This document shows, in pieces, positions 56,133 through 56,316 of a stretch of 64,000 nucleotides of DNA. The notes beneath the pieces are model-generated. The model was not told the origin of the DNA and made no database searches. It was given only the letters and a program-made list of their open reading frames with translations. The position numbers were made by a program, and so were the translations under genes. The first letter of the stretch is position 1. Every line of letters begins with the position of its first letter. The stretch is from NCBI RefSeq assembly GCF_003334385.1, contig NZ_QOWN01000020.1; one strand, written 5' to 3'. Source of the DNA: Escherichia coli (GTDB taxonomy: Bacteria > Pseudomonadota > Gammaproteobacteria > Enterobacterales > Enterobacteriaceae).

Positions 56133-56316
56133 GCCCGATGCGACGCTGTCGCGTCTTATCGTGCCTACAAATAGTCCGAACCGTAGGCCGGATAAGGCGT
56201 TTACGCCGCATCCGGCAATTGGTGCATGATGCCTGATGCGACGCTGGCGCGTCTTATCAGGCCTACATTGGTGCCGGATCGGTAGACCGGATAAGGCGTT
56301 CACGCCGCATCCGGCA
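56133..56316. repeat. BIME array of four REP units in alternating orientation
   Basis: GCCCGATGCGACGCTGTCGCGTCTTATCGTGCCTAC / GTAGGCCGGATAAGGCGTTTACGCCGCATCCGGCA / GCCTGATGCGACGCTGGCGCGTCTTATCAGGCCTAC / GTAGACCGGATAAGGCGTTCACGCCGCATCCGGCA. Confidence 0.9.

Follow-up and report, generated by a model that had tools for sequence, protein, structure and literature searches.

What is the repeated DNA that fills the gap between the convergent genes fre and fadA of Escherichia coli, how did it come to be there, and does it act on the genes that flank it? We addressed these questions in a 64,000-nt stretch of E. coli chromosome (contig NZ_QOWN01000020.1 of assembly GCF_003334385.1; hereafter the window), which is collinear with K-12 MG1655 from thrP to fadB (~3.971-4.035 Mb in K-12). 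An initial annotation, made from the letters alone, had seen four repetitive extragenic palindromic (REP) units in the fre-fadA gap and further REPs at three other sites. We find that these repeats belong to the REP (palindromic unit) family of E. coli and occupy four sites: one array of the bacterial interspersed mosaic element type BIME-2 at fre-fadA, two BIME-1-like elements at aslB-aslA and uvrD-yigE, and one solitary REP at rhtC-rhtB. We are highly confident in an explanation that combines this family identity with probable spread by the REP-associated Y1 transposase (RAYT) and with a probable local action on the convergent transcription units to either side.

The first descriptions of REPs and BIMEs date from 1984-1991, and the initial annotation was right to call the elements of the window known rather than novel: they belong to long-known classes. 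They carry little weight as a discovery, and a published table of K-12 terminators already lists two of the sites, as REP288 and REP289. The value of the analysis lies in a clean annotation, namely the boundaries and types of the units, an explanation for a match to the RNA family naRNA4, the context of the fadBA 3' untranslated region (UTR), and a catalogue of alleles.

Nine REP units at four sites

REPs were placed by direct reading of the four sites together with repeat finding and pattern searches. The 64-kb window holds nine units, distributed over fre-fadA, aslB-aslA, uvrD-yigE and rhtC-rhtB. With up to three mismatches, the REP foot motif CTTATCMGGCCTAC has 16 matches in the window where 5.8 are expected, a count reached by none of 100 shuffles; all nine units are among the 16, and at two mismatches or fewer only a match at 22532 falls outside the claimed sites. 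An nhmmer profile built from the nine units recovers the same nine (E 4e-13 to 3e-9). Its next matches in the window drop to E > 1, most of them self-matches on the opposite strand, and include no further canonical REP. The sites are also linked to one another: the repeat finder shows that 12974-13010 in the aslB-aslA gap is 100% complementary to 56183-56219 in the fre-fadA gap, and such cross-links between sites were confirmed by a self-BLAST of the window. Both methods find two direct repeats of 98/99 nt inside 56131-56322.

The units can be assigned to published types. Five canonical Y units (the degenerate unit at 28960-28995 is excluded) are 29/32 to 33/34 identical to the E. coli REP consensus GCCGGATGCGGCGTGAACGCCTTATCCGGCCTAC as printed in PMC12306157, and the longer pair of units at fre-fadA agrees with the Z2 sequence in Table 1 of Nunvar et al. 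(PMC2817692). Alignment to the REP consensus, on which the initial annotation had staked its identification, is thus borne out both by the printed sequence and by the profile. All nine units fold as hairpins with one internal mismatch or bulge (-15 to -21 kcal/mol). In an alignment of 16 units, made up of the nine in the window, their allelic variants and three Z1 units from E. albertii, the consensus stem has 11 pairs, and four of these show compensatory changes on both sides. The GTAG (CTAC) foot is intact in seven of the nine and reads CTAA at 28992-28995 and GTAA at 37208-37211.

Every unit is extragenic and lies in a gap between convergent open reading frames, 3-93 nt from a stop codon. 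The earlier description had put the elements at the 3' ends of convergent or adjacent genes; this is upheld, and all four pairs (aslB/aslA, uvrD/yigE, rhtC/rhtB and fre/fadA) are convergent. The stop codons of uvrD, fadA and rhtB are 3, ~5 and 7 nt, respectively, from a REP. The units are also abundant outside the window. In a comparison of 5,426 complete E. coli genomes, which serves for all strain counts below, a 1.1-kb query around fre-fadA matches a median of at least 38 places per genome and an aslB query a median of 27, each in 5,426/5,426 genomes. This analysis itself establishes what the units are, how they are built, where they lie with respect to stop codons and terminator, how many copies genomes hold and how strains differ; the RefSeq annotation of MG1655 lists no REP features.

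Hairpins of this kind, GC-rich and sited at gene ends, invite the objection that they are chance palindromes or Rho-independent terminators mislabelled as repeats, especially as one named K-12 element, "REP290", is really a terminator hairpin. The nine units, however, resemble one another in sequence over 30-37 nt (E <= 3e-9) and nothing else in the 64 kb does; they have dozens of relatives per genome, and no T tract follows them. The objection is refuted by the motif excess, the nhmmer profile and the genomic copy number, and we give it essentially no credence.

A BIME-2 array within the fadBA 3' UTR

On the plus strand the array between fre and fadA (56132-56316) reads Z2(+) Y(-) Z2(+) Y(-), that is, two Z2-Y pairs that repeat every 98/99 nt, which confirms the four units of alternating orientation seen initially; REP coordinates given at that stage agree with ours to within 1-4 nt. 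Unit 1 (56132-56168, plus strand; TGCCCGATGCGACGCTGTCGCGTCTTATCGTGCCTAC) is a Z2 variant with one foot mismatch and was placed by pattern searches, folding, nhmmer and comparison with Nunvar Table 1 (PMC2817692). A directly read 14-nt linker, AAATAGTCCGAACC (56169-56182), joins its GTAG-proximal end to that of unit 2 (56183-56217, minus strand), a Y unit identical to the consensus at 33/34 positions, with GTAG on the plus strand at 56183 (repeat finder, fold, nhmmer). The tails of units 2 and 3 are separated by the 12-nt linker ATTGGTGCATGA (56218-56229), which corresponds to the linker inside the Rfam naRNA4 model. Unit 3 (56230-56266, plus strand; TGCCTGATGCGACGCTGGCGCGTCTTATCAGGCCTAC) is a canonical Z2 by patterns, fold, nhmmer and the published sequence (PMC2817692). 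Its GTAG-proximal end is connected through the directly read 15-nt linker ATTGGTGCCGGATCG (56267-56281) to that of unit 4 (56282-56316, minus strand; fold, nhmmer), a second Y unit with 33/34 identity to the consensus that ends ~5 nt from the fadA stop.

A BIME-2 is defined by Y and Z2 units in inverse orientation, with short linkers, in tandem copies (PMC3333891). Because Y and Z2 alternate inversely at fre-fadA, with short linkers and in tandem, the array is a BIME-2. Its closest described counterpart is REP325, the BIME-2 of K-12 between yjdM and yjdN that is the source of naRNA1-6, with which it shares the inverse alternation of Y and Z2, the short linkers and the ~98-nt tandem unit. The two differ in size (12 units in REP325, against four at fre-fadA in the window and six there in K-12), in the sequences of their linkers, and in setting, REP325 being inside an operon whereas the fre-fadA array lies between convergent genes. 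They also differ in strand, in that transcription from fadA would yield the complement of naRNA4.

Where transcription of fadBA ends determines whether the array is part of its message. The stop codons of fadA and fre are at 56322-56324 and 56037-56039, respectively. Direct reading, a terminator search and folding identify an intrinsic terminator for the fadA strand at 56045-56070 (minus strand), with a stem running from 56070 to 56052 and then seven Ts. This terminator is on the far side of the array from fadA, 6-13 nt past the fre stop. The array lies between the fadA stop and the fadBA terminator, and therefore the four REPs sit inside the fadBA 3' UTR. Viewed on the plus strand, the same stretch (56045-56070) is a hairpin preceded by seven As and without a T tail, so that for fre the array is behind the hairpin. 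Minimum-energy folds of the whole UTR indicate strong structure (z -6.7 and -4.9) and confirm the terminator; in them, adjacent inverted REPs pair with one another rather than as local hairpins, and we used these folds only for the terminator and for the strength of the structure.

The array also contains a full-length match to naRNA4 (Rfam RF02564) at 56186-56263 on the plus strand, composed of a Y hairpin, the linker and a Z2 hairpin. It covers positions 1-77 of 77 in the model and scores 92.1 bits against a gathering score of 59.5. Taken at face value, the match could mean that the array encodes naRNA4-like nucleoid-associated RNAs that bridge cruciform DNA with the protein HU and condense the chromosome, and naRNA4, or even its complement, is reported to condense DNA with HU in vitro (Qian et al. 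2015, PMC4550694). But such a match is expected from BIME-2 paralogy alone: naRNA4 is itself a single Y-linker-Z2 unit from REP325, a BIME-2 with 12 hairpins (PMC4550694), and for this reason we read the Rfam match as paralogy between BIME-2 units and not as the sign of a gene. The match is moreover in the sense of fre and antisense to fadA, behind the hairpin that follows the fre stop, and the fadA-sense strand of the array reaches only ~31 bits against the model. The proposed function of naRNA4 is itself disputed: REP325 and naRNA4 had no measurable effect on nucleoid compaction, and contacts between REPs were undetected (bioRxiv 10.64898/2026.03.23.713779). We consider a nucleoid-RNA role for the fre-fadA array very improbable.

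The gap is covered in part by a stretch from the literature that runs from inside fre into the fre-fadA gap (PMC5302844; window ~55800-56200), which suggests that this region is prone to repeat-mediated deletion.

Two BIME-1-like elements and a solitary REP

The elements after aslB and uvrD are built differently, from two inverted REPs around a longer linker. At aslB-aslA, the left unit (12976-13010, plus strand) is of Y type with 33/34 identity to the consensus, as seen by reading, repeat finder, fold and nhmmer. It is followed by a 34-nt L linker (13011-13044, plus strand), in which a motif search finds the core ATTCAATAAATTGCA at 13023-13037, the motif of the integration host factor (IHF) site in RIP/RIB/BIME-1 elements. 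The right unit (13045-13081, minus strand; fold, nhmmer) resembles Z2, has a length of 37 nt and shows compensatory changes in its stem; it is not a 30-nt Z1. At uvrD-yigE, the left unit (28960-28995, plus strand; fold, nhmmer) begins 3 nt past the uvrD stop and is a degenerate, Y-like sequence with the foot CTAA for CTAC. Its 34-nt L linker (28996-29029, plus strand; repeat finder, motif search) carries the same 15-nt core at 29008-29022, and the right unit (29030-29064, minus strand; fold, nhmmer, published table) is of Y type, 32/34 identical to the consensus, and corresponds to K-12 REP288. The two linkers are 76% identical, have the same orientation and have the exact 15-mer ATTCAATAAATTGCA in common; the motif CAATAAATTGCA occurs at 13026-13037 and 29011-29022.

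To what family do these linkers belong? A scan of species-representative genomes with the 15-nt core returned 120 loci, of which 117 were chance matches in unrelated taxa. The three matches in E. albertii all lie in Y-L-Z1 elements (BIME-1), with the core in the same orientation, and because of this we identify the linkers of the window as L motifs of the RIP/RIB/BIME-1 type. The 30-nt Z1 unit itself, GTAGGCCTGATAAGCGTAGCGCATCAGGCA, was seen only in the E. albertii comparators. Our Z1 consensus, presumably representative, is based on these E. albertii sequences and on the Z1 unit of Gilson and Bachellier.

The comparison with BIME-1, also called RIP or RIB (Y-L-Z1, with an IHF site in L), gives a divided result. 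A single-copy, conserved L linker between two inverted REPs is found at both aslB-aslA and uvrD-yigE; it has the 34-nt length and the exact core, and its orientation relative to the left unit is that of the three canonical E. albertii copies. The pairing of one Y with one Z1 is found at neither: the place of Z1 is taken by the 37-nt Z2-like unit at aslB-aslA, and uvrD-yigE combines a degenerate Y-like unit with a Y. Judging from their sequences, the two elements are BIME-1-like but atypical under the strict definition (PMC3333891), because their partner units are not Z1. The initial annotation had called them BIMEs with a motif resembling the IHF site of BIME-1. The elements hold, as does the motif (CAATAAATTGCA, in the L core), whereas the Z1 partner is absent and, as described below, the generic IHF consensus is matched only at chance level. 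In the stretch that separates the aslB stop from the first REP, a small hairpin (GCGGCCATTTTGTGGCCGC, 12945-12966) differs from its K-12 counterpart, the shorter GAAATCGGCGGCCGCC, by an insertion or deletion.

The single REP reported between rhtC and rhtB is present at 37208-37242 on the minus strand. It is a 35-nt Y-type unit, 29/32 identical to the consensus (fold, nhmmer, published table), with the stop codons of rhtB and rhtC at distances of 7 and 19 nt, respectively; its foot is GTAA instead of GTAG, and one stem pair is changed in a compensatory way. As a Y-type hairpin between convergent genes it resembles the solitary REP or palindromic unit, reportedly described by Stern et al. in 1984. 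Single REPs make up 84/584 in K-12 (PMC3333891). Unlike a typical solitary REP, however, its GTAA foot predicts that it is no longer a RAYT substrate under the rules that Ton-Hoang et al. derived in vitro (PMC3333891).

In K-12, the uvrD:yigE element is named REP288 and the rhtC:rhtB unit REP289, and both overlap predicted bidirectional terminators (supplement of bioRxiv 10.64898/2026.03.23.713779). From the numbering, aslB-aslA is presumably REP287 and fre-fadA REP291. The remaining name, REP290, was considered as a fifth site (metE/ysgA terminator region, window 44125-44160) and rejected as it lacks the REP consensus; what follows metE there is the hairpin of an ordinary intrinsic terminator, ACCGGGTGGTAATACCACCCGGT, with a run of Ts behind it. 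A second candidate, the cyaA/cyaY terminator hairpin GTGCCGGAAAGCGAGGCTTATCCGGCATGC (22515-22545), has REP-like arms (GCCGGA...CTTATCCGGC) that are too weak for it to be called a REP; it could be a REP in decay, or the likeness could be coincidental.

REP sites vary among E. coli genomes

The initial annotation had proposed comparing REP copy number across strains. When this is done, all four sites prove polymorphic among the 5,426 genomes. The strain of the window is itself not K-12: the 1.1 kb around fre-fadA are 100% identical to SCU-104, and K-12-like strains have 98 bp more than the window at this locus. The fre-fadA locus is present in 5,426/5,426 genomes, 44 of them without a contiguous match. 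To describe its alleles we used a systematic sample of 39 records, which fall into three length classes, with REP content verified on one representative per class. Two REPs are found in ~67% of the sample, as three single-pair alleles (A, B and C, with a half-REP remnant in B); four REPs in ~20%, as A-B (the type of the window) or B-C; and six REPs in ~13%, as A-A-B, in K-12 and related strains. In K-12, the two copies of A differ by one base (C/T) in the Z2 foot. The locus therefore holds one, two or three Z2-Y pairs depending on the strain, a variation in copy number that matches the published behaviour of BIME-2 (PMC3333891).

At the other sites, variation extends to neighbouring genes. The full aslB-aslA element is found in only ~40% of the sampled genomes, and in ~28% it is reduced to a single inverted Y or to a hybrid hairpin that results from deletion between GATGCG microhomologies. 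About one third of genomes have lost ~1.58 kb of aslA (1,763/5,426 with <80% coverage), leaving a 138-bp pseudogene remnant, and one endpoint of this deletion is inside the right-hand REP of the element, at a GATA microhomology (window 13045-14630). At uvrD-yigE, the BIME allele is carried by 55% of genomes; in ~45%, including O157:H7, the BIME (window 28957-29102) is replaced by a 903-bp gene of the SAM hydrolase/SAM-dependent halogenase family (SAM, S-adenosylmethionine), and this allele has a plain perfect hairpin, GCCGGATGCGGTG...CACCGCATCCGGC, after uvrD. The REP allele of rhtC-rhtB is present in 88% of genomes, and in the other ~12% the site (37189-37249) has no REP and carries an 861-bp gene for an Rpn-family recombination-promoting nuclease/putative transposase.

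The catalogue of alleles thus shows that REP sites coincide with changes in copy number and with the presence or absence of genes in E. coli. One could imagine that the number of Z2-Y pairs at fre-fadA is a heritable dial on fadBA expression and that the REP sites of the region serve as breakpoints for gene loss and gain; we regard this combined idea as speculative and rather improbable. If it were true, gene loss and gain at these REPs would reflect rearrangement mediated by REPs or RAYT and not coincidence.

The same variation lends itself to another view, the strongest rival to our explanation, in which the repeats are purely selfish or neutral: driven by RAYT in a REPIN-like manner, altered by slippage and unequal recombination, and tolerated at convergent 3' ends, the only locations in which they would be harmless, while having no host function here. 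Presence/absence or copy-number polymorphism at all four sites across the 5,426 genomes is what one would expect of such passengers, as is the decay of the GTAG foot in two units, and each transcription unit has, or could have, an ordinary terminator hairpin of its own. On the other hand, compensatory changes keep the hairpins paired, although the requirements of RAYT could explain these too, and published experiments show that some REPs affect mRNA and transcription locally. A selfish origin is in any case compatible with a local effect, so the two views do not exclude each other. We see the strictly neutral version as a serious possibility but not the probable one.

Proposed origin and local action

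Returning to the explanation that we favor, REPs would be non-autonomous hairpin-forming repeats that RAYT, also known as TnpA(REP), spreads and reshuffles, and arrays such as that at fre-fadA would be resized through recombination between tandem units. The units of the window share with REPIN/RAYT systems and with the subterminal hairpins of IS200/IS605 elements a hairpin with a 5' GTAG, an arrangement in inverted pairs, and membership in a family recognised by a Y1 HUH transposase. They differ from complete REPIN/RAYT systems in being dispersed non-autonomous copies: the K-12 annotation has no RAYT gene in the interval of the window. RAYT/TnpA(REP) is a relative of IS200/IS605 (PMC3333891, PMC2817692). 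The suggestion made initially, that IS200/IS605-family elements be sought as agents targeting these REPs, is therefore apt as regards kinship through RAYT, but insertion into E. coli REPs is known instead from IS1397, of the IS3 family, and IS621, of the IS110 family (PMC1525189).

Once in place, the REPs at these sites would act locally on the flanking convergent transcription units, and for RNA protection, attenuation, ribosome stalling, binding of gyrase and IHF, and RAYT mobility we draw on the literature. The array at fre-fadA would be transcribed as the fadBA 3' UTR, with its first hairpin ~5 nt past the fadA stop and the terminator beyond the array. There, the hairpins would be expected to form a barrier to 3'-to-5' exonucleases and cause partial Rho-dependent attenuation of transcription. 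The BIME-2 REP325 partly terminates transcription in a Rho-dependent manner and also stabilises the mRNA upstream of it; in the same study, REPs are mostly found between convergent (~60%) or tandem (~40%) genes, and expression is higher in convergent pairs that have a REP (bioRxiv 10.64898/2026.03.23.713779). Since hairpins are within 15 nt of its stop codon, fadA may also be subject to interference with terminating ribosomes. A REP that lies <16 nt from a stop codon lowers translation, according to Liang et al. 2015 as cited in PMC12306157, and by distance fadA (~5 nt), uvrD (3 nt) and rhtB (7 nt) would all fall in this range.

At the level of DNA, the BIME-2 could be a preferred site for gyrase and the L linkers sites for IHF, both of which would be plausible between convergent genes. 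A stronger form of this idea holds that the elements are mainly protein sites, with gyrase on the BIME-2 and IHF on the L linkers relieving or organising supercoiling between convergent units. All four sites do lie between convergent genes. In the literature, gyrase has a higher affinity for BIME-2 than for BIME-1 (PMC1475751) and IHF binds in the L motif of BIME-1 (PMC3333891; PMC2817692), and the exact L core is common to both elements of the window and to the BIME-1 copies of E. albertii. An IHF site in the L linkers is therefore suggested by resemblance to the L-motif family and by the literature. With one mismatch allowed, however, the generic IHF consensus WATCAANNNNTTR has 46 matches in the window against 45.7 expected, which is chance, and alleles without REPs are common, so that the sites are dispensable. 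We judge it unlikely that protein binding to DNA is the main role of these elements.

Several observations also weigh against the local action and RAYT-driven spread that we propose, and the chance-level IHF count is one of them. RAYT requires GTAG and a stem mismatch (PMC3333891), and the units at 28960-28995 and 37208-37242 are probably immobile relics because they have lost the GTAG. Alleles with fewer or zero REPs are common at every site, and for that reason no REP site is indispensable. Finally, terminal REPs had no genome-wide effect on mRNA half-life (bioRxiv 10.64898/2026.03.23.713779).

Other repeats and RNA features of the window

The initial annotation regarded the REPs as the only repeated DNA of the window besides a microsatellite in hemX. 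As a statement about repeats within the window this is supported by self-BLAST and repeat finding; the hemX array is a perfect hexanucleotide repeat, (GGTGCA)x11.5, at 16682-16750 inside the gene. An element resembling the enterobacterial repetitive intergenic consensus or intergenic repeat unit (ERIC/IRU) had, however, been overlooked. This inverted-repeat element lies in the metR-metE spacer upstream of metE (~41745-41805; core CACCCCGGTCACTTACTTCAGTAAGCTCCCGGGGATGAA), and a 75-nt query taken from it matches a median of eight places per genome in 5,418/5,426 E. coli genomes. By these matches it belongs to a second dispersed-repeat family in the window. Rfam additionally places EsrE (listed as "Erse") within ubiJ, at 48789-49040, and GlmZ after aslA, at 15189-15395, and together with the K-12 annotation it marks the argX-hisR-leuT-proM tRNA cluster at 11123-11556.

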